Assembly (NCBI GenBank): GCA_029882355.1 | Contig: JAOUKV010000007.1 | Span: forward strand, 10,114 to 74,113 | Length of the DNA: 64,000 bases | Reading direction: 5' to 3' | Origin: Gammaproteobacteria bacterium | GTDB taxonomy: Bacteria; Pseudomonadota; Gammaproteobacteria; SZUA-229 | Part shown: positions 1,360 to 19,519 of the stretch, piece after piece | Numbering within the stretch: the stretch's first letter is position 1 | Layout: the number at the start of each line of letters is the position of its first letter | Notes under the pieces: generated by a model | What the model was told of the DNA's origin: nothing | Seen by the model: only the letters and a program-made list of their open reading frames with translations | Databases searched by the model: none | Translations under genes and position numbers: made by a program

Positions 1360-1839
1360 TTAGTTAGCATTTAAATGTAAGACGACATCATTACCCTTTA
1401 TGCTCTTCGCAGATACATTAAGCTGTCGCCCTTGACCCTTATATTCGATTGAACAAACGATGTCCGGATTAGGTAGATATCCTTCTGCTTTTTCCGGCCA
1501 TTCAATCAGCGAGACAGACTGATCATCGAAATAATCTCTTACACCAGCGAATTCCAGCTCTTCACCATCACTAAGCCTATATAAATCAAAGTGATAGAGC
1601 ATATTTTCAGTTTCTAATTCGTAGGGTTCGACCAGTGTATAAGTTGGACTTTTAACCATTCCCTGATAACCACAGCCACGCAGGAACCCCCGCGCAAAGG
1701 TGGTTTTACCAGCCCCCAGGTTACCCTCTAAAAAAATCACCAGATCAAGATTGGACTTTTTAGCCATATTTGCTGCAAAGGCTTCAAGACTGGATTCAGA
1801 GTCAATAAATTGGGATATTGATGCAAGTTCATCATTCAT
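1360..1839 (-). CDS. tsaE: tRNA threonylcarbamoyladenosine biosynthesis ATPase TsaE (YjeE)
   Basis: 159 aa with P-loop GNLGAGKTTFARG; a 4-nt ATGA overlap with the upstream nnr matches the conserved operon. Confidence 0.92.
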   Translation of the reverse strand: MNDELASISQFIDSESSLEAFAANMAKKSNLDLVIFLEGNLGAGKTTFARGFLRGCGYQGMVKSPTYTLVEPYELETENMLYHFDLYRLSDGEELEFAGVRDYFDDQSVSLIEWPEKAEGYLPNPDIVCSIEYKGQGRQLNVSAKSIKGNDVVLHLNAN

Positions 1840-3326
1840 GCGTTTATAACTCGTCTGATCATGTCAATTAGCTCTGAGGCCACCATACCGTAGGTATCAC
1901 CCGCTGCCGCCAAATCACCTGCACGCGCATGTACACAAACACCCAGCGTGGCAGCTTCATTTAAATTTAAACCCTGTGCGACAAAGCCTGCGATGACCCC
2001 GGTCAAGACATCACCCATACCAGCGACCGCCATGGCAGGGTTGCCCAATGAGCAAACACGCAGCTTATCACCATCATAAATCAGCGTGCCTGAACCTTTT
2101 AAAACAACGACACCTTTCATTAGATCATAGAGTTGTTTGATTGCAGCAAGGCGATCAAGCTGAATATCCGAAGCTTTATGACAATATAGCAAGCGAGCGG
2201 CCTCACCAGGGTGTGGAGTAATAATATGAGCTGGAGTGATATGTAAATTGTTCTCTGCAATTAGATTTAATGCGTCCGCATCAAGTACCATTGGTCGATC
2301 AAGCGCGATAGCTTGCGTCAATAATCGATGTGCCCAGGCATCCCGCCCTAAACCTGGTCCTATAGCAACCACCGATATTCTCTCTACACACAATTCAGGT
2401 AGGTCACCATTTACACTGCCGTAGACCATGGCCTCAGGACAGGCCGCAGCAACAGCGGCAATATGCTCAACACGCGTCACCACGGTGACCATAGCAGCAC
2501 CACTGCGTAAAGCTGCTCTAGCTGCCAGTATCACCGCGCCGGGCATACCATCATTACCACCTATGACCAGCACATGGCCGTACAGACCTTTATGTGAATC
2601 GTGCCTTCTTTTAGGTAGATGAAAATATTCGGGTGATATCAATAATTCAGCGGCTGGTAGTTCGGACTCATAGACAGACTCAGGCACATCCAGTGAATCA
2701 AAAATAACCTCACCGCAGCAGGCCTTACCGCTCGCCGTAAATAAACCTACTTTCAAAGCAATAAAAGTGACAGTAATATCAGCCGAGATTGCTGCACCTT
2801 TTATTGAGCCAGTTAAAGCGTCAAGACCTGATGGTACATCGACAGAAATAACTGCCTTAGCCGAATAATTTACGGCATCAATCCAGTTTAGCCATGAGCC
2901 TTCCACTTCACGGGTTAATCCCGTTCCCAATAAAGCATCGACAACAACATCTGCATCGTTAATTAAGGCAACATCATTCACTGAAAGCACCGCAGTTTCA
3001 TGCCATTGCAGATAAGCCTGACGCGCATCACCCTGAAGTTTTTCCGGATCAGTCAAACTCACGACTTTTACATCCAGGCCTCGCTGCTGAGCCAGACGCG
3101 CAATGACATAACCATCGCCTGCATTATTCCCTGCACCGCATAAAACCAGAATTCTTTTTGTCTGAGGATAGTTTCTGGACAAAACGTCAAGGACTGCTTT
3201 GCCTGCTCTACGCATCAAGGTGTAGCCGGAAATACCGTGGTCCTGGATGGCTTTGTGATCAATACGCCTGACGGACTCAGGCGTATATAGTGAAGAAGGA
3301 AGTTTTTGCATAAGCCAATTATACAA
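1836..3326 (-). CDS. nnr: Bifunctional NAD(P)H-hydrate epimerase/dehydratase Nnr (YjeF)
   Basis: 496 aa with an N-terminal YjeF_N domain (LVLCGAGNNAGDGYV) and a C-terminal carbohydrate-kinase domain (GPGLG). Confidence 0.92.
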   Translation of the reverse strand: MYNWLMQKLPSSLYTPESVRRIDHKAIQDHGISGYTLMRRAGKAVLDVLSRNYPQTKRILVLCGAGNNAGDGYVIARLAQQRGLDVKVVSLTDPEKLQGDARQAYLQWHETAVLSVNDVALINDADVVVDALLGTGLTREVEGSWLNWIDAVNYSAKAVISVDVPSGLDALTGSIKGAAISADITVTFIALKVGLFTASGKACCGEVIFDSLDVPESVYESELPAAELLISPEYFHLPKRRHDSHKGLYGHVLVIGGNDGMPGAVILAARAALRSGAAMVTVVTRVEHIAAVAAACPEAMVYGSVNGDLPELCVERISVVAIGPGLGRDAWAHRLLTQAIALDRPMVLDADALNLIAENNLHITPAHIITPHPGEAARLLYCHKASDIQLDRLAAIKQLYDLMKGVVVLKGSGTLIYDGDKLRVCSLGNPAMAVAGMGDVLTGVIAGFVAQGLNLNEAATLGVCVHARAGDLAAAGDTYGMVASELIDMIRRVINA

Positions 3327-3370: not shown

Positions 3371-4159
3371 CTAACTCATTTCGTCTTCAAAGGTGTTATT
3401 ACATGAGCATGTTGCTGTTGACTCAGATTGTAAAAAATATTCATCAAGTCTTGCCACTATATCATTGGGTTTAAACGGCTTGGCCAGACGGCCAGTTTCA
3501 CTACTGTCAGCCTCAACCACAGAATCAGTCGATGTCATTACAATAACTGGCAGGTGTTGACCAAATTCAGTTTGTCTAATTCTTCTCAGCACCTCATTGC
3601 CATCAATGCCGGGCATTACAATATCGAGCAATACCAAATCGGGGCACTGCTTTTCTATTTCTTCCAGCGCATACTCACCATCAGCAACTTCAACAACTTC
3701 ATAGCTAGCCTTAACCAATATCTTTTTCGCTATAGCACGAACCATACGACTATCATCTACCACCATAACTTTTTTTATGCTTAATGGTTTCTCAACGACA
3801 GCGGGTGCCTTCTCAATTTTCTCTATATCAAGAAGTTTAAGAACTTCAGCAGTATCAGATAAATCATGTTCCACAATATTACTTATATAGGGTAAACCCG
3901 AGACATCCTGTTCAAAGAAAAAACGTGCATACTCAATATTTTTAATATCTAGTAATGCAGCATTACCGCGTTTGGTTTTATATCCTACATCAATAATTTT
4001 TCCATGATTGAAAGAAAAACCTGCACCATCACCATTATTGGTTACCAGTAATAGAACGCCATCCCAATCTTCATGACACGCCAAAGAAAGTAATTTTTTC
4101 ACTTCATCAAAAGCCACCAGGTTGCTTTGATACACTGTCACTCTCTCTTGACTCACCAA
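3371..4159 (-). CDS. Response regulator with C-terminal REC domain and an uncharacterised ~130 aa N-terminal domain (PATAN/DUF4388-like architecture)
   Basis: The C-terminal receiver reads VMVVDDSRMVRAIAKKIL...DLVLLDIVMPGIDG...MTS. The N-terminal domain has no motif I recognise. Confidence 0.7.
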   Translation of the reverse strand: MVSQERVTVYQSNLVAFDEVKKLLSLACHEDWDGVLLLVTNNGDGAGFSFNHGKIIDVGYKTKRGNAALLDIKNIEYARFFFEQDVSGLPYISNIVEHDLSDTAEVLKLLDIEKIEKAPAVVEKPLSIKKVMVVDDSRMVRAIAKKILVKASYEVVEVADGEYALEEIEKQCPDLVLLDIVMPGIDGNEVLRRIRQTEFGQHLPVIVMTSTDSVVEADSSETGRLAKPFKPNDIVARLDEYFLQSESTATCSCNNTFEDEMS

Positions 4160-4199
4160 CCCTTCCTCTTAACTCTTCAACTTAATTTTCATAAAATTA

Positions 4200-5405
4200 T
4201 TAAGCACAACAATGAAGCAACTGTTTTTGTTTCCAGGCAACGAGCCAGAGTGGAATCTCAACAGCAGTAATAGCAGGACTAATAAAATAACCCTGTGCTA
4301 CATCACAACCCAACTTTTCTACTGAGTTCCATATCTCCTGAGTTTCCACGCCTTCAGCGACAGACTTAATATTCATTTTTTTTGAAAAGTCGATGGATGT
4401 TTCAACAATGACATGAGCATTTGGATCTGTCTGTATATGCTGAACAAAAGAACGATCGATTTTGAGCTCATCAAATGGACCTCGGTGCAACATCTGAATA
4501 GACGAATAGCCAGTACCGAAGTCATCAATTGATAGATGAATACCTTTCATACGTATGCGAGTCAAAATATCCAGCACATGAGAAATATCATCTGAAAATG
4601 CACTTTCGGTGATTTCGATAATCAACTGCGAAGGATCTAGTTTATGCTCAATCAGTTTTTTCTGAAGCTGATCTGGAAAATTAAGATCAGTCAAAGTTTT
4701 GATTGAAATATTTACTGCCACCTGAATCACAATTCCTTTAGATTTCCATCCACCACAATCTGCTAATGCGTTATCCAACACCAAGGAAGTCAAATCTTTT
4801 ATCAAGCCAGCCTCCTCTGCAAGAGCGATAAAGTCATCTGGCATAATTAAACCTTTATCTGGATGTTGCCACCTTACAAGCGCTTCAACAGAGGTCAAAA
4901 AATGCGAGGGTATGTCAATCTTTGGCTGGTAATAATTTACAAGTTCTTTGTTGTTTATAGCCTGTCTCAACTCATCAGCAGTTATCGGACCACTGATTTT
5001 TTTTGTCTCGGAAGACGGTACTCGAGGCTTACTTCTTCTATCTAGAATCCTCTCAAGACTATCAATCGAAATCGGCTTTTCTAATACACCTTTTACTGTA
5101 AGCCCACGACTATCAGCCAGCCCTCTTGCAGAATAAAGAACACTAAGATCGAAACCACTCATGAGTACAATTTCAGCTTTTGAATCAACACTAGCGAGAT
5201 ATCTAATCAGTTCTACTCCATCCATACCCGGCATGGTGAGATCAATAATAATAATATTTAGATCATGGCTGTACTGCTCAATAAATTCCTGAGAATCGCT
5301 AATACTGGTCACTTCATAGCCAATATTTCTAGCAACAAAGCTTACAAACTCACAAACATCATCTTCGTCATCAACTACAAGAAGACGTGGGGCTTTGTTA
5401 TTCAT
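4200..5405 (-). CDS. REC-EAL c-di-GMP phosphodiesterase response regulator
   Basis: N-terminal receiver (LLVVDDEDDV...IIDLTMPGMDG) plus an EAL domain (YYQPKI, EALVRW, DDFGTGYSS). The start was moved to MNNKAPRLLVVDD at 5405 because the 5'-extended ORF overlaps the hemerythrin gene. A strong start is supported by a stop/ATG spacing of 2 nt. Confidence 0.85.
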   Translation of the reverse strand: MNNKAPRLLVVDDEDDVCEFVSFVARNIGYEVTSISDSQEFIEQYSHDLNIIIIDLTMPGMDGVELIRYLASVDSKAEIVLMSGFDLSVLYSARGLADSRGLTVKGVLEKPISIDSLERILDRRSKPRVPSSETKKISGPITADELRQAINNKELVNYYQPKIDIPSHFLTSVEALVRWQHPDKGLIMPDDFIALAEEAGLIKDLTSLVLDNALADCGGWKSKGIVIQVAVNISIKTLTDLNFPDQLQKKLIEHKLDPSQLIIEITESAFSDDISHVLDILTRIRMKGIHLSIDDFGTGYSSIQMLHRGPFDELKIDRSFVQHIQTDPNAHVIVETSIDFSKKMNIKSVAEGVETQEIWNSVEKLGCDVAQGYFISPAITAVEIPLWLVAWKQKQLLHCCA

Positions 5406-5832
5406 GCTTAACTCCCATCTCGTAATTATGTACACAATCAGAATAATTTTTATCCATTCCTTCAATATGATCCTTTAGCCAATCTTCAAAAAACCCCATA
5501 AACCAAACCGCCGCATTTATATCACCCCTAAATTCTGGGTTTTTCACGAAATCTTTAAGTTGATTTTCTAGCATGCGGTGAACTAGTTTATGATTTTCAT
5601 AAAAGGGATAATGACAGGACTCCATCATGTCTTCTTCATGACGAAAATGATATATCGTGTACTGTAGCAAATCATCAATGATCATGGGTAACGCTGAAGC
5701 TTCACCACTCTTTATGGTTGCCTGCAAGTGATTAAGTAACTCAAAAAGCACCTGGTGATCATCATCCAGCTCAACAATATCCACACTAAAATCTGAACAC
5801 CATCGAAATGTATTAAGTGCGTTATTAGCCAT
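5398..5832 (-). CDS. Bacteriohemerythrin (HHE cation-binding domain protein)
   Basis: 144 aa with hemerythrin His/Glu/Asp ligand spacing: HFRHEED, YENHKLVH and WLKDHIEGMD. Confidence 0.8.
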   Translation of the reverse strand: MANNALNTFRWCSDFSVDIVELDDDHQVLFELLNHLQATIKSGEASALPMIIDDLLQYTIYHFRHEEDMMESCHYPFYENHKLVHRMLENQLKDFVKNPEFRGDINAAVWFMGFFEDWLKDHIEGMDKNYSDCVHNYEMGVKHE

Positions 5833-5888
5833 TTTTCTATCCTTTTTTATCTCAATTATTGAAGCACCTAAAAATATTCATCGCGATA

Positions 5889-6242
5889 CTAAATACTGCT
5901 ACTAATCAGACTTCCATTTGAATCGATCAACTCATCAAATACCTTATGTAAATTACTACAATTCAGTGGCCGACTTATAGAGTAAGCAGAGTTAACACCT
6001 GAGACATTCTCACCAATAGAAACCATTACTTTCCCGCTATACATGCCAATTTCACAGTTGTAAATAAACTCTTTACCTTCGTCTTGCTCAAAATCGACAA
6101 TAACAACTTCTGCATTATCCTCATCTGAATATACCCAGAGTAAAGACGGGTCCAAATTTATAACTTTTAAAAATGACTTCAATATGACTTGATCATGCTG
6201 ATTTAAACCAAAAGAGGTAATTTTATGCTGCACTTCCATCAT
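5889..6242 (-). CDS. Hypothetical protein (117 aa, no recognisable domain)
   Basis: ORF in the six-frame track. The start was moved to MMEVQHK at 6242, where AGGAGAAG sits 3 nt upstream of ATGATG; the longer N-terminal extension has no ribosome-binding site. Confidence 0.5.
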   Translation of the reverse strand: MMEVQHKITSFGLNQHDQVILKSFLKVINLDPSLLWVYSDEDNAEVVIVDFEQDEGKEFIYNCEIGMYSGKVMVSIGENVSGVNSAYSISRPLNCSNLHKVFDELIDSNGSLISSSI

Positions 6243-6493
6243 GTCTTCTCCTGAGAAATAACCATGAGCAAATACTATTATCAGGGGACAAATAAACCTA
6301 TAGGAATACTCCCTATTTACTGCAGCAACAGTCAAAAAATGCGGTGTTAATTATTAGCAATAAACTATGGATATACAGAATTAATCAGCATTGTTTTATA
6401 TAAAACAGCAAGCGGAAGTTATAACCTGACTTAGAGTGCGTGTATATTTTTATTGTTGAATTGCGGGTAAAAAAGAAGGAACAAGAAGTATTA

Positions 6494-7123
6494 TCACGCA
6501 GTAACTATACCGTGGCGTATAGCATAGCGTGATAACTCAACAAGGTTTTTAACATCTAGTTTATGCATAATATTGTCACGATGGTTGCTGGCTGTTTTGG
6601 GGCTAATGTTCAAATTACTCGCTACCTCAGTCACTGTAGATCCCTGTGCGAGCAAAACAAAGATTTCAAACTCACGCTTAGATAACTCATTGATTTCAGA
6701 GGGCCTGGAACCTGTATCAGCGCCTTTATCGACTAGATCATCACTAAGGTAGAAATGATTTAGCGATACAGCTTCAATAGCCTCCAGCAACTCTGTCGGT
6801 GCACTGCGCTTGGTGACATAACCATTTACACTGAGCTTTTTCATATTTTCAACATGACTAATGTCATCATACATGCTTAAAACGATAACTTTGACCTGAA
6901 CATCTTGTGCTTTAATTCGTCGTACCAGCTCCACACCACCCATACCAGGCATATTAATATCACAAACAATAAGATCAGGGCTCTGTTCCAAATAAACTTT
7001 ATAGCCAGTCTCTGCACTACCTGCTTCGATCACATCATAACGCCCATTAGACAATAGCAGGCTCTTAAATCCTGCGCGCACAACTTCATGATCATCAACC
7101 AGTAAAATTTTTAGATTGCTCAT
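6494..7123 (-). CDS. NarL/FixJ-family response regulator (GacA/UvrY-like, REC + LuxR HTH)
   Basis: MSNLKILLVDDHEVVRAGF...DINMPGMGG receiver and a C-terminal LuxR-type HTH (LSKREFEIFVLLAQGSTVTEVASNLNISPKTASNHRDNIMHKL). Confidence 0.9.
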   Translation of the reverse strand: MSNLKILLVDDHEVVRAGFKSLLLSNGRYDVIEAGSAETGYKVYLEQSPDLIVCDINMPGMGGVELVRRIKAQDVQVKVIVLSMYDDISHVENMKKLSVNGYVTKRSAPTELLEAIEAVSLNHFYLSDDLVDKGADTGSRPSEINELSKREFEIFVLLAQGSTVTEVASNLNISPKTASNHRDNIMHKLDVKNLVELSRYAIRHGIVTA

Positions 7124-7125
7124 AT

Positions 7126-8535
7126 TTAGTCAATTTCTGCTATTTTTAAATTAATACGTACAAATAGTGATACTCCAGCTCCATCACGACTGGATATATT
7201 AATAACACCGCCAAGTGCCTCTACACGTTCATGCAAACCGAAAATTCCCATGCCATGTTTATTTTGTTTTTTATCCTCTGAAAAACCAATGCCATTATCT
7301 GATATTTCAAGCTCAAAAAAATCAGATGATGCCGCAGATTCATTGAGTATTTTTTTTCTTTGCATTTTTATCTGTACTTTCGATGCTTTTGCATACTTGG
7401 CAATATTCGTTAACGATTCCTGCACAATTCGGTAGATTGTTAGTTGGACCAACTGATCCATTGTTTCTACTTCGCCGGCTATATCCAGTTTGATATCCAC
7501 ATCTGTATGGTGGAGACCGGAAGCATGAATGCATGACTGTATCGCAGCCTCTAAACCTAATGTATCTAATACAACGGGGTGCAGCCGATACATCAACTCA
7601 TGTGCAGAATCATACATTTTATCCGCAACGTCTGAAATACTTGTTGCACTTTGTTGATAGAAATCTGTAGTAACATTAGTTGCCCCGGACATTGCTGAAG
7701 CTATAACTCGCACCGCAGTAAGTGACTGGCCTATCTCATCATGTAGCTCTCTTGCAATTTCATGGCGTACATCCTCCTGAACTTGCAGCATTCTGCGTGC
7801 AAGATTTCGTTTATCGATACTGAGTTTTAACATTGCTCTCTGCGCGCGTTTCATGCTTGTTACATCAAGCGCAAAACCTGCTAATTCATTATTTCCTGAA
7901 GTACGAAAGATATAGTGCATCAACCATAATTTTCCCTGTGAGGTGGCATGCTGGCTTTCAAAAAAATATTGTCCATGTCGCATGATCATTTCATATTTGC
8001 CTGTAAGATCATGAAAAATGTCCGTCGCTGGCACCCCAGTCTGAACATCCACATTTAAATCTAGTTTTGATAAGGCAGCACCCACCATTTCCTGAATCAT
8101 TTCATGCTGATCGACGCGATAATAAATAACGGGAATTTTTCTCAACAATGAGCGTATAGACTTATCGTGCTCTACCCGTTTTCTCATAACTGAAATGGGC
8201 TCTGCAATGTCGACACCCATCTGCAGAAAACCATCTTTACCATTATCTAAAATAACTGGCGAGAAAGAGACTTTATGCCAGATTTTTTTATCTTCGTAAT
8301 AGGTATCATAAAATGCTGGAGCTTTTTGATATTTAATATAATTACATAAGGGGCAGTCTGCCTCTAGAAGTTTGTTAGAATGAAAAAATTTATGGACAGT
8401 TGCGTTCAAAAGAACGCTTTCTTTCATGCCTGCAAACGCAATAGCTTCTTTATTGACTTGAATAATTTTACCTGAATGATCAATGATAATCACTGGATAC
8501 GGAATCGAGTCCATTTGAAAAGGATTATGTAGCAC
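7126..8535 (-). CDS. Cytoplasmic PAS-domain sensor histidine kinase (HisKA_3/NarX-type)
   Basis: 469 aa with no TM segment. It has N-terminal PAS-like repeats, an H-box ELHDEIGQSLTAV typical of HisKA_3, and a HATPase domain (ISDNGIGF...GMGIFGLHERV). A 3-nt spacing to the downstream NarL-type regulator indicates a cognate pair. Confidence 0.85.
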   Translation of the reverse strand: MLHNPFQMDSIPYPVIIIDHSGKIIQVNKEAIAFAGMKESVLLNATVHKFFHSNKLLEADCPLCNYIKYQKAPAFYDTYYEDKKIWHKVSFSPVILDNGKDGFLQMGVDIAEPISVMRKRVEHDKSIRSLLRKIPVIYYRVDQHEMIQEMVGAALSKLDLNVDVQTGVPATDIFHDLTGKYEMIMRHGQYFFESQHATSQGKLWLMHYIFRTSGNNELAGFALDVTSMKRAQRAMLKLSIDKRNLARRMLQVQEDVRHEIARELHDEIGQSLTAVRVIASAMSGATNVTTDFYQQSATSISDVADKMYDSAHELMYRLHPVVLDTLGLEAAIQSCIHASGLHHTDVDIKLDIAGEVETMDQLVQLTIYRIVQESLTNIAKYAKASKVQIKMQRKKILNESAASSDFFELEISDNGIGFSEDKKQNKHGMGIFGLHERVEALGGVINISSRDGAGVSLFVRINLKIAEID

Positions 8536-8550
8536 TGTGCTAGTGCCTCC

Positions 8551-8934
8551 TCATAGCTTTGTTTTAATTTCAGTTAGAATTTTTTCTAAATCCTCCAGGG
8601 CTATAGGCTTGCTCAATGTATCTATAACTGACATACCCAAGTCTGTTCCCACTGTTTTTGCCCAATTCAACATATAGTCACCGTGACCACTCATTAAAAT
8701 AATAGGACAGCGATTACCCGCAGAGCCTAACCACTCAAGTAAACCAATTGCATCAATATCTGGAATCGCAACATCCATTAGCAACAAGTCAGGCGACATA
8801 AGCAAATAGGCTTCCTGAAAATCCTTGCCGCTGGACATGGTAATAACCTCATAACCTGTAACCTCCCCGGCAAAAGAGGCAAATTCGCCCATATCTGGTT
8901 CATCATCAACAATTAATAAAATTGGTTTACTCAT
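8551..8934 (-). CDS. Single-domain response regulator (REC only)
   Basis: ILLIVDDEPDMGEF...LLLMDVAIPDIDA...ILMSGHG. The start was chosen at MSKPILL (8934), preceded by GGAGAAGAGAATA. The longer track ORF would overlap the upstream kinase by 56 nt. Confidence 0.75.
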   Translation of the reverse strand: MSKPILLIVDDEPDMGEFASFAGEVTGYEVITMSSGKDFQEAYLLMSPDLLLMDVAIPDIDAIGLLEWLGSAGNRCPIILMSGHGDYMLNWAKTVGTDLGMSVIDTLSKPIALEDLEKILTEIKTKL

Positions 8935-11900
8935 TATTCTCTTCTCCATCAATCTCAAATCGGACACGCTGTGCAAGCTCAAGCTTACTATAGGGTTTAG
9001 CTAATCGTTTACTAGCCAAAAGTCTTAAATCTTTGCTGAGATCACTTCCTCCCCGGGTATATCCCGAGACCAGTAATATCTTAATTTTTGGATGCAGCTG
9101 CAGTGCCGCTGTCGATAATTCATAACCATCCTTACCACCGGGCATAATAATGTCACTGAACAGTAAGTCGATTTTTTCTCCACTTTCAAGAAATGTCATA
9201 GCTTGTTTGCTATTCGTGGCCTGCAATACTCGGTAACCAAGTTCGCTAAGATAAATAGTCGCCACTTCAACGAGTTGAGGTTCGTCATCAACCACTAATA
9301 TCGTTTCTGTTCCAGTTGGCAATACAACCTTCAACTTACTATCCAGCACATTTAATTCATCTTTATCAGATCTTGGCAGATATATATAAAAGGTTGTACC
9401 AGCGCCAGATTCAGAAACAACATCTACATATCCATGAGAACGACGAACGAAACCATGCACCATGCTTAAGCCCAGACCAGTTCCTTTACCTTTCTCTTTG
9501 GTAGTAAAAAAAGGATCAAACATACGTTGCTGCACATCTTTACTAATGCCAGAACCAGAATCCGATACACATAAAACAACATAATCACCCGCACTGCTAC
9601 CATGCATATATGATGCTTTATCCTCATCTACGATTTCATTGTACACGCTAATATCCAGTCTGCCGTTTTCCTGCATAGCATCTCTAGCATTAATTACCAG
9701 ATTAATCATGGCATCCTCAAGATCGCCGGCATCAATGTCGGTCAACCAGAGATCATGCTCCAACTCATAGTTCACGCCAATATTTAGCCCGGCGGTTTTG
9801 TCTATCATAGATCGCATATCTTCAAGCATTTTACTTACAGATATGGTCTTCACCTCAGCAGCATTCAGCCTTGAGAAGCTAAGCAGACGTTTGGTTAATG
9901 CGCTACCACGTTTTGCTGTCTTAATCCCACTATCAATCCATTTATTCATATCAGCATTGTCACCTGAAAAACGTCTCAAGATTTCCAGATTACCACTCAT
10001 AATGCCAAGTAAATTATTAAAGTCATGAGCGATGCCACCCGCCATTTCTCCAATCGCTTCCAGCTTTCGTGACTGACGGATAATTTCTTCATGTTTACGT
10101 TGCGCTGTAATATCACGTTTTATCGCAACAAAGTTAGTGGTTTTCCCCGACGCATCCATCACCGGAGTGATATATTCCTCTTCCAGATAAATCTCACCAT
10201 CGCTACGTTTATTATATAACTCGCCGTGCCATGTTTTTCCTAATAATATAGTTCGCCACAGCTGCTCGTAGATAGAACTATCCTGCTTACCGGACTTTAA
10301 TATATTTGGTTTTTTACCTATGACCTCTGCAAAGGCATAACCCGTCATATTTTCAAAAGCCGGGTTAACCCACTGAATGATTCCTTCATTATCTGTAATG
10401 ACAATACCATCGGCAGCAGCTTGCAGAGCTTCTGATTGTAGATACATCTGTTCTTGCGCTTCTCGATGTAGAGTAATATCTTCGTTTAAGGACAGGTAAT
10501 TTATGATCTTGCCATTCGGAGATTTTATGGGAATAATCCTTGTGGATTGCCAAATAAAATCACCATTTTTATTCCTGTTATGGAAAACACCATTCCATTG
10601 CTGCCCACTAGTAATAGTTTGCCAAAGGTGCTGATATACTTTAACGGGCGTCTCACCTCCTTGAAATATTTTTGTATTTTTTCCAATCACATCTTCCGCG
10701 CTATAGCCGGTTATTGCTGTAAATGCAGCATTTGTATATTCAATATCACCCTTGATGCTGGTGATAATCATTGAAACAGGGCTTTGCTCAACTGCCAGAG
10801 ATAGTTTTTGCAATTCAGTTTCTCGAATTTTAATTGAACGAGCCATTGAATTAAAAGAGCTTGTTAGAAAAGCTAACTCATCATTACTTGATGGCACAGA
10901 AATTTCTTCATAACGGCCTCTACTCAGAGCTTCTATTCCCGCTACCAAACGACTCACAGGATGTAAAATTGTACGTCTTAAAAAATAAACGCCCAATGGA
11001 AATAACAAAAAAACATTGACCAACAGCACCACAATCATTGCTTTTTGTAGAATAGTAAATTCAGGGTACAACCTGGGTAACTCAAAGATAAACTTTAGAC
11101 TTTTTCCGTTACTCACTGGGTAATTTGCAATGCCATAAATATAATCTGGCTGTTCGACAAAATGCCAGCCCTGTAAATTTCCTGCAGCTAAATCTTTAGA
11201 GGATAATGCATCAATTCTTTTACCAATCTGAGCTTGATCCCCAGTAGAAATCCAGTTGCCATCATCAAAGGACAGATAAAAATCCAACTTTGCATACCTA
11301 CTAATACCTTCAACAAATGATCGCCCCAGTTCTCCTATCGTAATCAGGCCTACCCTCTCTTTAGATTTGTCATGAAGAGGTATTAAAACAGGTGAATGAA
11401 AACCCACAGTAAACCTGTCACCATGAGCATGAATATGGACATTGTTTTGATCGTTCTCATGTTCTTCAAAATTCATTGCTTTTTCTTTTACCGGCTCAAG
11501 CCAGAAAGGTAACTTATCTACTGGCTGATAATTTTTCAGTGTAATGTCTGAAATAAAATACTGGGGTATTCCTTTGTCATATGAAATATAGCCAATATGA
11601 CTTTGATATTTCTCATCAACAAAAGCAAAACTCGCTAGACGCATATATCCGTCATAGGCTGCGATAACACTTACATTCTCTGCTTTTAGCAACTTAACCA
11701 ACTCACCAGCCAAACTTTTCTTTTCAGAATCAAAAACAATTGACTGATAATCCTTTGGATTCTGATAGTGAGAGATCATACTCAACGAAGAAACAACATC
11801 CTCACGCATGGAAAATGAGCGCACATTTCTAAGTAGATTTTTACGATTATCGATATAAACACTTAAATCATCAAAAGCCTCATCAATTTGTTTATGAGCG

Positions 11901-12019
11901 GAATCTCGATTAATCTCATTATTGAGAAACAAAAAGACTGATCCCAAAATTAACAAAGAGAGAATTATTGAACTAAGCCAAAAAAACAATAATTTATGAT
12001 CAAGTTTAAATGTAATCAT
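8927..12019 (-). CDS. Hybrid sensor histidine kinase (periplasmic sensor - TM - HAMP - 2x PAS/PAC - HisKA - HATPase - REC)
   Basis: 1030 aa. It has an N-terminal TM segment, a periplasmic region of about 290 aa, a second TM (MIVVLLVNVFLLFPLGVYFL), PAS/PAC repeats, H-box [12 protein letters not shown], HATPase motifs DSGSGIS and GTGLGLSMV, and a C-terminal receiver (ILVVDDEPQLV...DIIMPGG). Confidence 0.9.
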   Translation of the reverse strand: MITFKLDHKLLFFWLSSIILSLLILGSVFLFLNNEINRDSAHKQIDEAFDDLSVYIDNRKNLLRNVRSFSMREDVVSSLSMISHYQNPKDYQSIVFDSEKKSLAGELVKLLKAENVSVIAAYDGYMRLASFAFVDEKYQSHIGYISYDKGIPQYFISDITLKNYQPVDKLPFWLEPVKEKAMNFEEHENDQNNVHIHAHGDRFTVGFHSPVLIPLHDKSKERVGLITIGELGRSFVEGISRYAKLDFYLSFDDGNWISTGDQAQIGKRIDALSSKDLAAGNLQGWHFVEQPDYIYGIANYPVSNGKSLKFIFELPRLYPEFTILQKAMIVVLLVNVFLLFPLGVYFLRRTILHPVSRLVAGIEALSRGRYEEISVPSSNDELAFLTSSFNSMARSIKIRETELQKLSLAVEQSPVSMIITSIKGDIEYTNAAFTAITGYSAEDVIGKNTKIFQGGETPVKVYQHLWQTITSGQQWNGVFHNRNKNGDFIWQSTRIIPIKSPNGKIINYLSLNEDITLHREAQEQMYLQSEALQAAADGIVITDNEGIIQWVNPAFENMTGYAFAEVIGKKPNILKSGKQDSSIYEQLWRTILLGKTWHGELYNKRSDGEIYLEEEYITPVMDASGKTTNFVAIKRDITAQRKHEEIIRQSRKLEAIGEMAGGIAHDFNNLLGIMSGNLEILRRFSGDNADMNKWIDSGIKTAKRGSALTKRLLSFSRLNAAEVKTISVSKMLEDMRSMIDKTAGLNIGVNYELEHDLWLTDIDAGDLEDAMINLVINARDAMQENGRLDISVYNEIVDEDKASYMHGSSAGDYVVLCVSDSGSGISKDVQQRMFDPFFTTKEKGKGTGLGLSMVHGFVRRSHGYVDVVSESGAGTTFYIYLPRSDKDELNVLDSKLKVVLPTGTETILVVDDEPQLVEVATIYLSELGYRVLQATNSKQAMTFLESGEKIDLLFSDIIMPGGKDGYELSTAALQLHPKIKILLVSGYTRGGSDLSKDLRLLASKRLAKPYSKLELAQRVRFEIDGEENNE

Positions 12020-12105
12020 GTATAAGAATTCACTCTAAAATATTAGATTCGTCTGATTAATATTGTTATTCAACATACGTCTTTCATAATGATTTATTTA
12101 GTACT

Positions 12106-13278
12106 TCAATCAGCCTGCGTATCTATCACAGGAAACAATAGAACAAAACAACTACCTTTTCCTACTTCTGTCTCAACAGTAATATGCCCTCTATGGTCAT
12201 GCATAATCCCATGCACCATGGCCAGCCCCATTCCTGTTCCCTTATCTGTACCTAATTCTTTGGTCGTGTAGAACGGATCAAAAATACGTTCTGAAAATTC
12301 TGATTTTATGCCACATCCAGTATCACAAACTGAAATCCGTATATAGTCACCCTCAAATTTTTCATGGCACGAGGAACATCCGTTTACAATATTTTTAGCA
12401 TACTGCAGGCCAATAGTAATACTCCCCTTTCCCTGCATAGCATCTAGTGCATTTAGGCATAGCTCTATTATCAGTTGATGTACTTGTTCTGGACGCGACA
12501 TGATTGCCAGATCAACATCTTCCAGTTTCAGCTTAAGCTCAATACTCGACGAAATATCAGATGTGATCATTGTTAATGATTCTTTAATCAACGGTGCTAG
12601 CATGCAAACTTCCAACTCCCCCACGCGACCATGCCCTTGTGTGAATGTCAGCATTTTTGCTACAAGGTCGCGCACACGCTCACTCGATGAATATATTTGC
12701 TCAACATAATGCTGCATTTTACTGTCACCAACGACTTCAACTTTATCTTTTAGCAGTTCCGTATAACCCATAATAGTGCCTAGAAGATTATTAAAATCAT
12801 GAGCAATACCACCGGTTAACTGCCCGATCGCTTCCATCTTATGTGCTTGCTTTAATTGTTTTTGTAACTCGGCCTTTTTCGCCTCAGCTTCAATTCGTTC
12901 AGCCTGCAAATCCAGCATTCGTCTACCAACTTTCAGCCTCGCTTGCAATTCAGCATTTTCGAAGGGTTTAACAATATAATCGTTAGCACCTGCTTCAAGT
13001 CCTTCAACAATATCACTCGACTTATTACGCGTGGTTAACAGGACAATATAAGGCGGGTCTTCAGTATTCTGCTGACGGATACGTTCGCATAATGCCTTGC
13101 CATCCAGTTTTGGCATCTCCCAGTCAAGTAACAACAACCGAGGACTTTCATCTCCCTGCAAAATATCCCAGGCAACTATACCATCTTCAGCTAGCACAGG
13201 CTGATAGCCCCACTTAACTGTTACACCTGACAGAATGGAACGAGATGTAACATCATCCTCAGCGATCAGCAACTTCAT
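12106..13278 (-). CDS. REC-histidine kinase fusion (receiver + HisKA + HATPase)
   Basis: [16 protein letters not shown]...DWEMPKLDG receiver, a coiled-coil linker, H-box [15 protein letters not shown] and HATPase motifs DTGCGI and [15 protein letters not shown] overlap with the upstream kinase. Confidence 0.88.
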
Positions 13279-16200
13279 AAGATTTTCTCCATCTCAACCT
13301 TTAGCTCTTCAAATTCCTGCCCAAGTTTGTGTATACACTGTTGAATAGTATCTATATCTGCTTTTTTTCCAGCCAGTTCTATTTTGAGTGCAATGGAACT
13401 CAATGCCATACCGCCTACATTTGCAGAGGCGCCCTTGATCCTATGAGCCATTCCTGCAATTTCTTTGGCATCCCCAATTTTCACCAATGATCTAAGCTGA
13501 TCGATCTGTATAGGCATATCTTGCAAGAAAACTTCTGCCACTGTGGTAATGAGATCCTGATCGCCCATCAATCTTTCACTCATTGCCACCCGATCAAACA
13601 CTAGCTTTTTAATTATTTCATCGTTGTTATCACCATCAGGCTTTATCATGGATGCTTGTTGGGATAACCTTATTTTATTATCACCTGGAGCTGATTGTTT
13701 ACGGAGTTCCTCAGGCAACCAGTGCTCAAGCACCTGCTGAACCTTCAAAACGTCTATTGGTTTAGAAATATAATCATCCATGCCAACTTCAATGCAATGT
13801 TCACGATCACCTTGCATAGCATTAGCAGTCATAGCGATAATAGGAATTTTATGGTCTTTAACATTGGTCGCCGGGTCACGAATCTGACGTGTAGCATCAA
13901 AGCCATCAAGTACTGGCATCTGACAGTCCATGAAAACAAGATCATAGGGCAACTGCTGAAGTGCACTGATCGCTTCAGCACCATTGGCAGCAAAATCAAT
14001 ACGTACACCAAACTTTTCTAACAGGCCTTTTGCGACCTTCTGGTTAACCATGTTATCTTCCACTACCAAGACACGTGCATTAAACGTTTTTACCATTATA
14101 TTTTTTTTATGAATAGTAAATTGGTCATCCGGATTACTGTCATCATCGACAGCTAGCATTAAATTATAAAGTTCCGACTGATTGACAGGTTTGCTGATAT
14201 AACCGCAAAAGCTAACCTCCAGGATTTTTTGAGCTGCACCAATCTGCCCCTGATTACCAAGTAACACCAGGCGAGTTGCTGACAGTTGCTTATCGTTAGC
14301 GATTTGCCTAGCCAGTAGCATACTATCTATATCTGAGATATGCATATCAACTAGTACAAAAGTGTAAGGCTTATTCTGCAAGACAGCATCCTGCATTATC
14401 TGAAGTATCTCAGATCCATTTTCGACCAGAGTATTTTCTATCTGCCATGAATCAAAAATTTCACCAAACAATTTTAGGCTAGCGATGCTGTCATCAACAA
14501 CCAATATTCTATCAACATGAAGCTTGTTTTTTGAGAGTAATGGTCTTTGCTGCTCTGAAACTAGCAACGGTAGTACAAACCAGAAAGTACTTCCTATGCC
14601 TGGTTTACTTTCTATACCGATTTCACCGTTCATAAGATCGACTAATTGCTTACAAATAGAAAGCCCGAGTCCAGTACCACCGTACTTGCGTGTTGTTGAT
14701 CCATCTGCCTGGCTAAAACGTTCAAACAAATTCTGTTGCTGCTCATTAGTAAGACCTATACCGGTATCGCTCACTGAAAAACACAGTAATACACCTTTCT
14801 CTGGATCATCTATACGCTCACAGGTAACTTTAACTTCTCCCTGTTCAGTAAATTTAATGGCATTAGCAACCAAATTAGTCAAAATCTGACGAATACGTCC
14901 AGGGTCACCTCGATAATTACATTGCTGAATAAAGTTAGCAGGACAAAGCAGTTCAAGCCCTTTATCCTCGGAACTGAATGTCATAGTGCGGGCAAAATCC
15001 TCCATCAATTCTACTATGTCAAAGTCCAAAAGTTCCAGCATGAGTTTGCCATCCTCAATCTTAGAAAAATCCAGAATATCATTAACTATAGAGAGTAGTG
15101 ACTCAGCACTATTTTTAATAGTCAAAGCACGCACATGCTGTGCCTGACTCAAATCATTTTCAAGCATAAGACCACTCATACCAATAACACCATTCATTGG
15201 TGTACGTATTTCATGACTCATATTCGCAAGAAAATCACTCTTGGATTGGTTAGCACACTTAGCCAGGTCTAGTGCATCAGCCAGTTCCAGTGTCCGTTGC
15301 TCAACAGCGATCTCTAGCTCATCACTATGTTGGTGAAGCGCCATATTTTTAAAATTGATTGATTGTAAAAGGGCATTAAAACGCTTCGCGAGGAGTCCAA
15401 TCTCTCCTTTATCTTCAATCTTAATTTCCCTAATAAAATCTATGTTTTCAAATTCATCCGTATTCTTCATCAAAACCTTAAGAGGAATAAGCAAGCGCTC
15501 AGCAAAAACCCAGCCTATAACTGTGATTAATAGAAAACTGACCCCACCAATAACAAAAAATCGCTCAACCAGATTATCTTTAATTAAATCCAGTTTACTT
15601 TTTGGATAACTAAGTAAAATTGAGCCTTCCATGCTCGGGTCTATAAATTGTAATTTGCGTGCAGAAACAAAGTGATTAACACCATTGAGTTGCATCATGG
15701 CCATGACATGGCTAATAGCTTCTTCTTCAGACAATAACGATTTATACGAGATATAATTCATCGGAATATCAATCATACGATTTTCACTCGTATTAAAAGT
15801 CGAGGCCATCACTCCTCGCCGACGAACAATAGTAATGTCCGTTAGGGTGTCTTTTTTCATGCCCGCAATTAGAGCATCATTGACAACATAACCAACAAGA
15901 ATAACACCAAGAATTTTTCCACTTTCATTTTCGTAATATATTGATGGTGCATATATAATAAGGCTATTTAAATCCTGAACTATGGAGAATTTAGTTTCAT
16001 TCTGCTGCAGTGCTGTACGCACGACTTTCCATGACATTAAAGAAGCACCGAGTAACTCTTGAGTCTCCGAGTGTGCAATGATGCGCCCCTCAGCATTCAT
16101 GAGGACAACAACATCAGCAGCCGACGCTTCTTTAAAGTATGCCATGGTGGCAGATTTTTCCTCTGAGCCATGTGATGAAAACATACCAGGCAGATGCTTA

Positions 16201-16433
16201 TCGTTAGCAAAATGCCGAGCCCAGTTCTCCGATACCTGACCTACAAGAGAAAGGAAATTTTCAGCCATGGCTTCTGTAGTGTGAAAACTTTCATGCATAG
16301 CAAGGTAAAAATCATCTTCTGCTAACCTGAGCACCATAATCCCGGAAACAACTTCAACAGCTAACACAACCACGACAAACAGGGATATAACCTTGAAACG
16401 TAATCTATGATAAAAAGGAATTTTAACATTCAT
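13275..16433 (-). CDS. Unorthodox hybrid sensor kinase (periplasmic Cache-like sensor - TM - HAMP - HisKA - HATPase - REC - REC - Hpt)
   Basis: 1052 aa with two TM segments flanking a periplasmic domain of about 250 aa. H-box [15 protein letters not shown], HATPase motifs DTGIGL and [11 protein letters not shown], two receivers ([11 protein letters not shown]...; [12 protein letters not shown]...DCQMPVLDG) and a C-terminal Hpt ([13 protein letters not shown]). Confidence 0.9.
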
Positions 16434-16445
16434 GTTTACTGGGTC

Positions 16446-17819
16446 TTATTTTAAGTTTTTTTCAGGGTAATGTTGTCGATAAGCATCGATCATCCATTTC
16501 ACTGACTTATCATCATGGCAACCACTATTCTGACAAGAGCTGGGCATATCATTTTTCTGTGCGACTTCTGGTGTGATGATTTTAAAAGCATGGTTACGGA
16601 TACTTAAAAATCCACCAGTCGTAACAATGCGTGGCATATGGCAATCCGCACAGGTCACGGTCGCTGTGGGACAGGGGTAATGAGGCACACCAGTTTTCGC
16701 CACATTATGCGACATACTATCAATATGGCAGCCACCGCATTGTGTAACGCCATCGCCAGAATGAGGCAACGCTTTATCACGCCCATGTGGTTCATGGCAT
16801 GCAACACAGGTCACACCAAATTTGGCGGTTTCTAGAGTAGGCTTTTTGTCTTTATCTGCGTGGCGATAGTCAGTAGAGTGGCAATATAGACACTCGTCGG
16901 TCAACTCGCCTCTATCACCACCTTTTTCATGTTCTTCCTTAAGTTTTTTTACTGCATTAGCATGCTTAGATTTAGACCAGTCACCAAATTCCTGATGGCG
17001 GTTCTTAGCGATACCATTACCCCAAAAAAACTTACCTTTTACGTCCTGTTTAGGAGTCATAGGTGAGATTGCAGATGTCAGATCCTCACCAGGTTTGTAA
17101 TTGACAGGGAAATTAAATATAGCACCGTGTACACCATCTTTAGGCGTGTTCTGTCCACGATTATGGCACTGACCACAAACGGTGGCAGAAACGCTACGAA
17201 CAATATCTTTTTTATTTGACAAATCAGCCGATTCATTTACATGGCAAAGTATACAAGGAGATGAAGTTATCTTTCGCTTATTTTGCACATGTACACTTCC
17301 AGGGCCATGACAGGCTTCACAACCAATACCAAATTCGGCAAATTTCAGCGTTGCTGGATCAAAGCCTGTGGTGTGACAACCATTACATTTCTTTGACATG
17401 GGCGTTTGCTTCCAGTCATTGACTTTATAGGCTTCCCATTTCTTCAACATAACGTGCCATTTTGCGGGCAGAGGATAATATTCACCATCAATCATGCGAG
17501 CATAAACCTGCTCCCACTTGCTACCGAGAACATATTCAACGTCTTCTTTTTTAAAGGTCAGCGCGGGGTCAGTAGAATTGAAATCGCCTAAGATACGTTC
17601 TCCCGTTGTTACCGGGAGAAACATGTATGGATGTAGGGTATTTGACTTCCATGAATCATAATTTGACGCATGACAATCACGACATTCCTCAGAGGTTATA
17701 TAAAGATTTTGATCGGAAACGCCATTATGAAGATAAATCACAGAACCGATTGCGATTACTACAAAAATTGCAATAAGACTAAATAGTTTTTTCATTAGAT
17801 TCTCAAAAAAATACGGCAT
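16446..17819 (-). CDS. Membrane-anchored multihaem cytochrome c (9 CXXCH + 1 CX4CH)
   Basis: 457 aa with N-terminal TM/signal anchor KKLFSLIAIFVVIAIGSVIYL. Haem sites are CRDCH, CNGCH, CEACH, CILCH, CGQCH, CLYCH, CVACH, CGGCH and CADCH, plus CQNSGCH. It sits 12 nt upstream of the 1052 aa kinase on the same strand. Confidence 0.85.
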   Translation of the reverse strand: MPYFFENLMKKLFSLIAIFVVIAIGSVIYLHNGVSDQNLYITSEECRDCHASNYDSWKSNTLHPYMFLPVTTGERILGDFNSTDPALTFKKEDVEYVLGSKWEQVYARMIDGEYYPLPAKWHVMLKKWEAYKVNDWKQTPMSKKCNGCHTTGFDPATLKFAEFGIGCEACHGPGSVHVQNKRKITSSPCILCHVNESADLSNKKDIVRSVSATVCGQCHNRGQNTPKDGVHGAIFNFPVNYKPGEDLTSAISPMTPKQDVKGKFFWGNGIAKNRHQEFGDWSKSKHANAVKKLKEEHEKGGDRGELTDECLYCHSTDYRHADKDKKPTLETAKFGVTCVACHEPHGRDKALPHSGDGVTQCGGCHIDSMSHNVAKTGVPHYPCPTATVTCADCHMPRIVTTGGFLSIRNHAFKIITPEVAQKNDMPSSCQNSGCHDDKSVKWMIDAYRQHYPEKNLK

Positions 17820-17920
17820 ACTACGGCCGACTATAATAGATTTTTTTAAGCGTTCACATAGGTAATATTCCTAATAAAACTTTCCTGGAAGAAAACTAAT
17901 TGACAGAGATCATTAGGCCA

Positions 17921-19225
<1,305 letters not shown>

Positions 19226-19519
19226 CTAAGAGGATTCTGCTGAAAAAGTAATAATACGACAAGATGAAGTTAAATCAGACAAGGACTCAAGTGCTGCACG
19301 CACATGATCATCCTCATCAAAAAACTCAACAACGACTGGCATATCAAAAGACATATCTAACAAACTACTAGAATGCATTTCGCCTGATTCACCAAAACCC
19401 GCAATACCACGAAACATAGTCACGCCTTTTACTTTGTGTTCATCGTGCAGGCGCTCGAATATCTTTTCGTGTACATGCTGTCCTTCTGTGACATAAATTC
19501 GTGCAACCGTTACATTCAT
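19226..19519 (-). CDS. DUF190 (PII-like) protein associated with crcB
   Basis: Start moved to MNVTVARIYVTEG (19519), giving a 4-nt overlap with crcB. The 157 aa track ORF runs antisense into crcB. DUF190 is frequently linked to crcB. Confidence 0.7.
   Translation of the reverse strand: MNVTVARIYVTEGQHVHEKIFERLHDEHKVKGVTMFRGIAGFGESGEMHSSSLLDMSFDMPVVVEFFDEDDHVRAALESLSDLTSSCRIITFSAESS

Follow-up and report, generated by a model that had tools for sequence, protein, structure and literature searches.

A multihaem cytochrome c gene paired with genes for Cache-like sensors across bacteria: a candidate periplasmic co-sensor in a composite signalling locus of a gammaproteobacterium

What does a multihaem cytochrome c do at the head of a long row of signalling genes? 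The question is raised by a stretch of 64,000 nucleotides (nt), here called the window, from a Gammaproteobacteria bacterium (SZUA-229; assembly GCA_029882355.1, contig JAOUKV010000007.1, positions 10,114-74,113 of the forward strand). Between the housekeeping genes serS (19189..17921), upstream, and nnr/tsaE (3326..1360), downstream, eleven co-directional open reading frames (ORFs) are found on the minus strand at window positions 3371-17819; we number them g1 to g11 in transcription order. The ORF listing, the translations and scans against Pfam and NCBIfam bear out this block and the domains that a preliminary description of the window had named in it. That description had taken the block as one pathway headed by the cytochrome, and here the comparison with other genomes leads elsewhere: relatives keep g4-g11 without g1-g3, and about 60 other cytochrome-sensor pairs occur without g3-g11. 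From gene order we regard it as near certain that the locus is two units side by side, A (g1-g3) and B (g4-g11). The overall reading that we find probable is that of two units in which the cytochrome serves the kinase g2 alone, as a periplasmic co-sensor of redox state or of a ligand.

Unit A starts with g1 (17819/17795..16446, minus strand), a multihaem cytochrome c similar to OcwA, with ten haem motifs and a putative N-terminal membrane anchor. It is followed by g2 (16433..13275, minus strand), a transmembrane kinase with, in order, a transmembrane segment, a Cache-like periplasmic domain, a second transmembrane segment, HAMP, HisKA, HATPase, two receivers (REC) and Hpt according to Pfam. 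The third gene, g3 (13278..12106, minus strand), encodes a soluble kinase with the Pfam architecture REC-HisKA-HATPase. Taken over the whole cluster, the kinases number four and the receiver domains eight, with a single Hpt.

Is this one locus or two? For comparison we used the contigs of g11 homologues, L092-L095 and L097. L092 (GCA_030636225.1; serS 90% identical) reads crcB, DUF190, serS, a 61-residue ORF, g4 to g11, nnr and tsaE, and a second contig, L093, is arranged in the same way. L097 reads serS, Peripla_BP_4, g4 to g11, nnr and tsaE. In L095, a more distant relative, g4-g7 and g9-g11 lie in other chromosomal surroundings, and L094 carries at least g8-g11, nnr and tsaE. The block g4-g11 without g1-g3 is in this way found in three related lineages of metagenome-assembled genomes, two of which have it between serS and nnr as the window does. 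Identities of the orthologues in the window and the relatives range from 44% to 92%, where the lowest value, for g4 against L095, comes from a partial alignment. No counterpart of g1, g2 or g3 is present in the loci of the relatives. Scattering or absence of the genes in relatives had been named beforehand as what would speak against a single pathway; g1-g3 are indeed absent, while g4-g11 are kept as a block.

The boundary between the units is sharp. Homology with L092 at the DNA level ends at window position 17830 and resumes exactly at the start of g4, 12019, which leaves a segment of 5.8 kb (12020..17829, minus strand) with g1-g3 and no counterpart in the relatives. At the same place L097 has an intact Peripla_BP_4 gene (L097:1186-2175) directly upstream of the g4 orthologue, an arrangement like that of TorT/TorS, and the 61-residue ORF of L092 (L092:1901-2086) consists of the last 51 codons of this binding protein, at 76% identity to the L097 copy. 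No trace of the binding-protein gene is found in the window (12020-12105). Judged from these alignments, the g1-g3 segment occupies the place of a binding-protein gene that formerly headed g4-g11. Parsimony favours a gain in the lineage of the window, with unit B older than the arrival of g1-g3. The c-di-GMP (cyclic di-GMP) and LuxR-type outputs, g10 and g7, belong to this older block B. The eleven-gene juxtaposition has so far been seen only in the species of the window.

These observations bear directly on the idea of a single co-transcribed eleven-gene phosphorelay, with the cytochrome as input and with c-di-GMP hydrolysis by g10 and the LuxR-type regulator g7 as outputs. There are reasons to consider it: the genes lie on the same strand with short gaps or overlaps over g1-g7 and over g8-g11, no terminator-like sites were found in the minus-strand intergenic gaps of the cluster, the eight receivers outnumber the four kinases and the one Hpt, g2 lacks a DNA-binding partner dedicated to it, and read-through may occur as g1-g3 are inserted directly upstream of g4. 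However, in three related lineages g4-g11 do without g1-g3, and at none of the approximately 60 other cytochrome-sensor loci are g3-g11 present. Further, g7 is conserved beside a HisKA_3 kinase of its own, g6, a spacer of 251 nt with a conserved non-coding block precedes g8, and the H-box shared by two of the kinases is a subfamily signature (see below). Taken together we hold a single phosphorelay to be quite improbable, and cross-talk between units A and B in this species to be no more than a possibility.

If g1 does not head one long pathway, with what does it belong? In the first five homologue contexts a membrane signalling protein is encoded immediately 3' of the cytochrome in every case. 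A census was then based on loci from a genome scan, since a homologue search with the sensor region of g2 alone gave three matches, too few to align. The alignment of the g1 family was scanned against one genome per species (185,579 species), giving 80 loci, and pairing was counted in the 63 loci where the cytochrome is 42% or more identical and the sequence continues downstream for 900 nt or more. In 61 of these 63 the cytochrome is followed by a homologue of g2 residues 1-370, and one more locus has a truncated dCache_3 ORF there, which brings the count to 62 of 63. The linkage of cytochrome and kinase, which the preliminary description had proposed to look for in other genomes, is in other words strongly conserved. 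In most loci the sensor starts between -11 and +22 nt from the stop codon of the cytochrome, very often with a 4-nt overlap. Among more distant cytochromes (29-33% identical) a g2-type sensor was found downstream in none of 15 loci; the nine downstream genes scanned in this group encode other cytochromes c, CcmE/CcmF, large surface proteins or a permease, or match no family.

The proteins encoded downstream of the cytochrome share their N-terminal part, consisting of a transmembrane segment, a Cache-like domain, a second transmembrane segment and HAMP. In 58 of them the domain counts are HAMP 45, HisKA 29, dCache_3 23 (best E=1.4e-15), GGDEF 21, CHASE4 15, REC 12 and Hpt 6. Their outputs comprise classical, hybrid and unorthodox kinases as well as GGDEF, PAS-GGDEF and PAS-GGDEF-EAL proteins. 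A constant sensor with exchanged outputs is the pattern that would be expected of a shared input module. Pairwise identities of cytochromes and sensors are correlated (r=0.86, Mantel p=0.001), with mean identities of 53% and 28%, respectively. When 41 non-redundant loci are compared, the pair keeps no constant companion, whether quinol dehydrogenase, maturation gene or regulator.

Could the pairing be without functional meaning, with g1-g3 beside serS by chance and the pairs elsewhere hitch-hiking in a mobile cassette? The pair does occur in unrelated contexts across taxa, which is consistent with horizontal spread, and g1-g3 are unlinked to unit B in every other genome. Yet gene order, overlap and sensor homology persist down to 42% identity of the cytochrome and about 20% of the sensor despite the exchange of outputs, neither a transposase nor any other third gene is repeatedly found near the pair, and the best repeat between the junctions of g1-g3 in the window is 9 nt, which is unconvincing. 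A chance association is highly improbable.

In total the cytochrome-sensor pair is present in about 60 of the 185,579 species genomes scanned. The hosts include Gamma-, Beta- and Alphaproteobacteria, Magnetococcus, Campylobacterota, Desulfobacterota, SAR324, Nitrospirota and Latescibacterota. Among them are sulfur and iron bacteria (sulfur-oxidising symbionts of tubeworms and bivalves, Thiomargarita, Gallionella and Sideroxydans), and further Sulfurimonas, Arcobacter, Desulfobulbaceae and Desulfocapsa; Shewanella atlantica (HAW-EB5), S. canadensis (HAW-EB2) and Psychromonas aquimarina are cultivable carriers, and in both Shewanella the sensor beside the cytochrome is a PAS-GGDEF protein. These hosts are typical of oxic-anoxic interfaces. 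A pangenome of the Gallionellaceae contains an unexplained 10-haem cluster annotated as 'Forkhead-associated protein' in 27 genomes of iron oxidisers (PMC10734462, Table 1). As Gallionella and Sideroxydans carry the cytochrome-sensor pair, this cluster may be the same family as g1.

A few single loci deserve mention. In two unrelated loci signalling proteins with hemerythrin domains adjoin the pair, a CHASE5-PAS-kinase-REC-hemerythrin protein (L008:2246-4924) and a hemerythrin-GGDEF protein (L006:675-1799). They recall the hemerythrin g9 of unit B, either by coincidence or as a common O2/redox theme. In the Solemya pervernicosa symbiont the transducer is split into a sensor-HAMP ORF and a GGDEF ORF in one assembly and is more fragmented in the complete genome (L004:11555-13963 and L005:11555-13419); frameshifts, pseudogenisation or sequencing errors are possible causes.

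What kind of cytochrome is g1? It has nine CXXCH motifs and one C-terminal CX4CH motif (C429-QNSG-C434-H435), that is ten haem motifs, and all ten are conserved in 48 homologues. Pfam families of multihaem cytochromes match g1, and a profile built from 28 homologues finds 6i5b in the PDB at E=8.4e-59, with query residues 26-442 aligned to residues 10-436 of the chain. This structure is OcwA, a nonahaem terminal reductase on the cell surface of the Gram-positive Thermincola potens that belongs to the NrfA/c554/MccA superfamily; it reduces nitrite and hydroxylamine and passes electrons to iron oxides (PMC6703420). A single hydrophobic segment, residues 1-27, is found in g1, and a cleavage site is not obvious. 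We read this segment as a membrane anchor that would leave the haem domain in the periplasm.

The homology between g1 and OcwA covers the full length of the sequence, and nine haem motifs follow each other in the same order. The residues that align with the conserved non-motif His and Met of g1 are His and Met in OcwA too, and a polar pocket is conserved at the distal position of haem 2. However, there are also clear differences. An additional motif, C189xxCH, lies in a stretch that is missing from OcwA, and the last motif is CX4CH in g1 but CXXCH in OcwA, so that g1 departs from the pattern of nine CXXCH. While g1 is a predicted membrane-anchored protein of a Gram-negative host with signalling genes as neighbours, OcwA sits on a Gram-positive cell surface, and the genes beside g1 are not electron-transfer genes. 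Two haems of OcwA are five-coordinate, with an open coordination position and the distal His-His motifs H281/H282 and H380/H381 (PMC6703420). The first of these motifs aligns to the invariant His275-Gln276 of g1, within a near-invariant stretch K272/R274/H275/Q276/E277 at the haem-2 distal position (H275, Q276 and E277 are invariant in the family, K272 and R274 conserved in at least 90%). The second aligns to a variable stretch of g1 with a conserved residue, His380, nearby.

Counting the conserved residues outside the motifs that could serve as distal ligands gives nine in the g1 family (eight His and Met395) against ten haems. Because of this deficit the sixth position is probably open or unusual in at least one haem of g1. 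A separate observation concerns Cys383, in the motif H380-Y-P-C383-P and outside the haem motifs: it is conserved in 45 of the 48 sensor-coupled cytochromes and is a serine in OcwA. It could be a ligand in a His/Cys haem or a reactive thiol, and either role would fit the sensing of sulfur compounds in the many sulfur-oxidising hosts.

The ancestry of g1 also gives weight to the main rival of a co-sensor, namely that g1 works as an enzyme or electron carrier, for instance as a periplasmic reductase or detoxifier acting on nitrite, hydroxylamine, NO or a sulfur compound, and that the neighbouring sensor only regulates it or detects the substrate separately, by means of its own Cache domain. Over its full length g1 is homologous to a nitrite and hydroxylamine reductase (PMC6703420), of NrfA/OcwA ancestry, with ten haem motifs and the polar pocket all conserved. 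Genes for regulators are commonly found next to those they control, and a Cache domain as a rule binds its ligand directly (PMC12889525). It is more difficult to reconcile with an enzyme that 21 of the 58 partners are diguanylate cyclases without a DNA-binding output and that no response regulator consistently adjoins the pair. Further, the order is always cytochrome then sensor, overlapping or nearly abutting, which suggests stoichiometric co-expression, and no genes for electron donors or maturation accompany the pair, whereas the distant relatives of the cytochrome do adjoin cytochromes and Ccm genes. We consider an enzyme of this kind unlikely, though less so than the single phosphorelay. 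It would be compatible with a hybrid in which the sensor detects the turnover of the enzyme.

Turning to the presumed partner, g2 is an unorthodox hybrid kinase of 1052 amino acids with HisKA at 397-462, HATPase at 509-623, two receivers and Hpt at 966-1044 (Pfam). As in the unorthodox kinases BarA, TorS and ArcB, HisKA, HATPase, receiver and Hpt are combined in one chain; the best NCBIfam match is BarA at 456 bits (cut-off 890), with TorS at 430 (677) and ArcB at 346 (838), all below cut-off. Its two transmembrane segments, at about 15-37 and 292-314, frame a Cache-like periplasmic domain of about 250 residues that contains zero cysteines. Segment prediction gives both g1 and g2 a periplasmic topology. 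By eye, the first receiver of g2 (residues 642-753) has a glycine (RLVLLGNQG) in place of the usual Thr/Ser and may be a pseudo-receiver, and the second is canonical.

The co-sensor mechanism, to which we give a somewhat better than even standing, can be put as follows. With g1 anchored in the inner membrane and its haem domain in the periplasm, the cytochrome would most likely form a complex with the Cache-like domain of g2. It would signal its own redox state, or else a small ligand bound by a haem without a conserved distal ligand or by a His/Cys haem. The signal would run through HAMP to set the autophosphorylation of g2, and the phosphate would move from the His of g2 to the Asp of its second receiver and then to Hpt. 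From there it would most likely pass to the receiver of g3, the kinase whose translation is coupled to that of g2. Of all this, the gene content, the homologies, the conserved pairing and the replacement of the binding-protein gene are observed, while physical contact of g1 with g2, what the signal is, the path of the phosphate and any exchange between the units are what we infer from sequence.

A number of points weigh against the reading of two units with a cytochrome co-sensor. The Cache scores of g2 itself are below the Pfam cut-offs (sCache_3_2 23.6 bits (28.4, E=6e-5) and CHASE4 21.0 (26.2, E=4e-4)), and the Cache assignment draws mainly on the homologues. The distal His-His motifs of OcwA are not kept as such, and an open haem in g1 is suggested by ligand counting. 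The co-divergence of cytochrome and sensor is partly due to shared ancestry and not to contact, and their adjacency could instead reflect the regulation of an enzyme gene. In the lone exception among the 63 loci, a Candidatus Scalindua contig (L038:103-3155), the gene after the cytochrome encodes an ABC-transporter permease. As to the origin of the locus, a gain of g1-g3 rather than losses elsewhere is a matter of parsimony over three relatives, no foreign composition is seen in g1-g3 (the GC content at third codon positions is 0.34-0.36, as in the neighbours), and by landing just before g4 the segment may have brought about genuine co-transcription and cross-talk.

How does the pair compare with known sensory systems? 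In H-NOX/HnoK and NosP/NahK a separate haem protein is encoded beside a histidine kinase or a c-di-GMP enzyme, depending on the species. The partners of g1 are split between kinases and cyclases in the same manner (29 HisKA and 21 GGDEF of 58). H-NOX and NosP are sensors with a single b-type haem and are mostly cytoplasmic, whereas g1 would be a periplasmic anchored cytochrome c with ten covalent haem motifs and a transmembrane Cache-like partner, and we know of no sequence relationship between the g1/g2 pair and these systems. TorT/TorS and LuxP/LuxQ are similar in that a periplasmic protein is encoded beside a transmembrane hybrid or unorthodox kinase, as is also the case in unit B of L097 with Peripla_BP_4 upstream of g4. 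However, their periplasmic partners are cofactor-free binding proteins while g1 is a multihaem cytochrome, and the g1/g2 pair has no sequence relationship to them. Finally, GSU0582/GSU0935 and sCache_heme proteins have one covalent c-type haem inside the Cache/PAS sensor domain (PMC12889525). They share with the pair the coupling of periplasmic haem-based sensing to transmembrane signalling proteins, but the periplasmic region of g2 is cysteine-free and the haems are on a separate protein with ten motifs. The cytochrome-sensor pair would thus be a form of accessory-protein co-sensing that is apparently undescribed: in the full-text literature searched, the coverage of which is incomplete, we came upon no account of a kinase or cyclase sensor with a multihaem cytochrome as its partner.

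The last gene of unit A, g3, has the same REC-HisKA-HATPase architecture as LvrB (8vc9, E=1.5e-24) and follows a hybrid kinase, as in the LvrA/LvrB system of Leptospira. The NCBIfam scores are below the family cut-offs (for LvrB, g3 reaches 155 of the 500 bits required, and for LvrA, g2 reaches 164 of 1200), and the likeness is one of analogy only, by which a relay from kinase to kinase is suggested. A counterpart of g3 adjoins no other cytochrome-sensor pair (about 60 loci) and is absent from the loci of the relatives.

The near-identical H-boxes that the preliminary description had pointed out in g3 and g4 are real, both proteins having AHDFNNLL. The suggestion that it had drawn from them, that the two kinases phosphorylate shared partners, does not hold. 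An H-box of this type is carried by CckA of Caulobacter (5idj) as well, the kinase cores of g3 and g4 are 33% identical and the residues after the H-box differ. The motif is best seen as a signature of the CckA subfamily, uninformative on shared partners. At 33% identity of the cores, we reject g3 as a recent duplicate of g4.

Which signals would the older unit B serve? Its first gene, g4 (12019..8927, minus strand), has a transmembrane segment, a periplasmic domain, a second transmembrane segment, HAMP, two PAS domains, HisKA, HATPase and REC (Pfam). The segments are predicted to surround a periplasmic domain of about 290 residues, which has no Pfam match. The orthologues of g4 in L092 and L097 are 69% and 65% identical over nearly their whole length; for L095 the value is 44%, and the alignment is confined to residues 393-1025. 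Next to it, g5 (8934..8551, minus strand) is a single-domain receiver of 127 residues (REC, Pfam) with orthologues that are 92%, 86% and 69% identical. A periplasmic cue would enter unit B through g4, for which the ancestral partner would have been the periplasmic binding protein, together with the single receiver g5, and cytoplasmic cues would act on the PAS domains of g4 and g6.

The kinase g6 (8535..7126, minus strand) is a cytoplasmic PAS-HisKA_3-HATPase protein (Pfam), UhpB/MctS-like but below the NCBIfam cut-off; a metagenome scan with g6 gave one contig of 1.5 kb only. In all relatives examined it is directly followed by g7 (7123..6494, minus strand), a response regulator of the NarL/FixJ type with REC-GerE (Pfam), which makes g7 its probable partner. 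The label 'GacA-like' that g7 had been given is justified in so far as it matches UvrY/GacA, but at 144 bits (cut-off 280) it is below the family cut-off, as it is for MctR at 140 bits (cut-off 300). In contrast to BarA/UvrY (GacS/GacA), g7 is kept beside the HisKA_3 kinase g6 in relatives that have no g2.

After g7 there is a spacer, and g8 (6242..5889, minus strand) encodes a small protein of 117 residues without Pfam or NCBIfam match. It had been described as an orphan ORF, in agreement with what we find: a search of 1.84 billion representative proteins gives no more than 3 relatives at E<=1e-10. In L092 and L097 the protein is kept at 64-68% identity and in the same position, and we take g8 to be a genuine lineage-restricted gene between g7 and the hemerythrin g9, as its conservation suggests.

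The spacer itself is 200-250 nt long and diverged between the window, L092 and L097, and its best conserved part is a block of about 75 nt directly upstream of g8 (6243..6320, minus strand), containing TAGGGAGTATTCCTATAGG. A 4-nt indel before the start codon of g8 in the alignment indicates that the block is non-coding. It includes GATAAT, a hexamer resembling a -10 element. We read the block as a candidate promoter or operator of a separate g8-g11 unit, and it could be a binding site of the adjacent NarL-type regulator g7. No Rfam match was found in the g7-g8 spacer; with this and a consensus fold of -4.3 kcal/mol, a riboswitch or small RNA in the spacer was rejected.

The three last genes are a bacteriohemerythrin and two receiver proteins. 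For g9 (5832..5398, minus strand; Pfam Hemerythrin) the NCBIfam family bact_hemeryth scores 109.5 bits, above its cut-off of 84, and the overlap of g9 with the start of g10 is also present in L092 and L097. The protein of g10 (5405..4200, minus strand) is a REC-EAL protein of 401 residues (Pfam, EAL E=1.1e-72, REC E=2.7e-14) with orthologues that are 63-76% identical. By eye it has stretches resembling the catalytic motifs of EAL domains (EITES, DDFGTG, EGVE, QGY), and it is predicted to be a c-di-GMP phosphodiesterase of the RocR/PvrR type. Under the mechanism proposed here g6 would be paired with g7, g8-g11 would be separately promoted, and the hemerythrin g9, coupled to the EAL protein g10, would sense O2 or redox.

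The final gene, g11 (4156..3371, minus strand), encodes 261 residues, an N-terminal domain of 125 residues followed by REC (Pfam), and has about 24 full-length homologues. Its N-terminal domain had been called novel, and no family indeed scores above cut-off. There are, however, weak signals for DUF4388 (PATAN), the sole match (E=0.19, 12 bits against a cut-off of 25), which also gives low scores in 9 of the 22 members of the family (best E=0.011); the domain is possibly a divergent PATAN. An AlphaFold2 model of g11 reaches a predicted local distance difference test (pLDDT) score of 78 with a multiple sequence alignment and 43.5 from the single sequence. In a Foldseek search with the former only receivers were matched, and nothing for the N-terminal domain.

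The spacing of the genes given above depends on the start codons. The probable starts are 17795 for g1 (449 residues), 8934 for g5 (127), 6242 for g8 (117), 5405 for g10 (401) and 4156 for g11 (261). These shorter starts are taken from independent gene calls on the identical public contig (ENA ERZ27296342; NCBI proteins MDH53876xx-877xx), and independent gene calls on a Logan contig 99.99% identical to the window also back them. The ATG of g8 at 6242 is preceded by a Shine-Dalgarno sequence. With these starts the gaps are 12 nt (g1/g2), 86 nt (g3/g4), 15 nt (g5/g6), 2 nt (g6/g7), 56 nt (g8/g9) and 43 nt (g10/g11), and between g7 and g8 there are 251 nt from the ATG at 6242 or 158 nt from the longest g8 ORF. 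Gaps of 0-90 nt, as first reported, are therefore correct everywhere except before g8. Several ATGA overlaps had also been reported; g2/g3 alone is of this kind, and g4/g5 (the start of g5 over the stop of g4) and g9/g10 overlap by 8 nt. Outside the cluster, upstream of serS, the longest ORFs of crcB (19516-19890) and DUF190 (19226-19699) overlap by about 180 nt. The 5' end of the DUF190 ORF is probably over-extended, since a product of 97 residues is called in L092, where the pairing of crcB and DUF190 is also kept.

What would the pair mean for the bacteria that carry it? To our knowledge, the sensing of redox state and electron acceptors in the periplasm is poorly understood beyond a few single-haem sensor domains. 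Whether these cytochromes form an unrecognised, widespread but rare class of receptors, in which an OcwA-derived ten-haem cytochrome is the perceiving subunit of Cache/HAMP transducers, we see as evenly balanced. If the cytochrome is indeed a co-sensor, it would be the first case of a multihaem cytochrome with a demonstrated role in signal input, instead of one as an enzyme or a wire. As the pair is found in cultivable strains, the idea of a co-sensor is directly testable, and with its exchangeable outputs the input module would be a candidate part for redox-responsive synthetic circuits. In the locus of the window the gene of one periplasmic co-sensor, the binding protein, would have been replaced at the same spot by a complete foreign sensory module. 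In general, bacteria of redox gradients would read the redox poise of the periplasm, or a small N- or S-oxide ligand, through a multihaem protein derived from respiration, and the transducers would drive two-component phosphorelays or the synthesis of c-di-GMP. This would explain how redox is coupled to biofilm formation, motility and gene expression in sulfur and iron oxidisers, relatives of cable bacteria and chemosynthetic symbionts.

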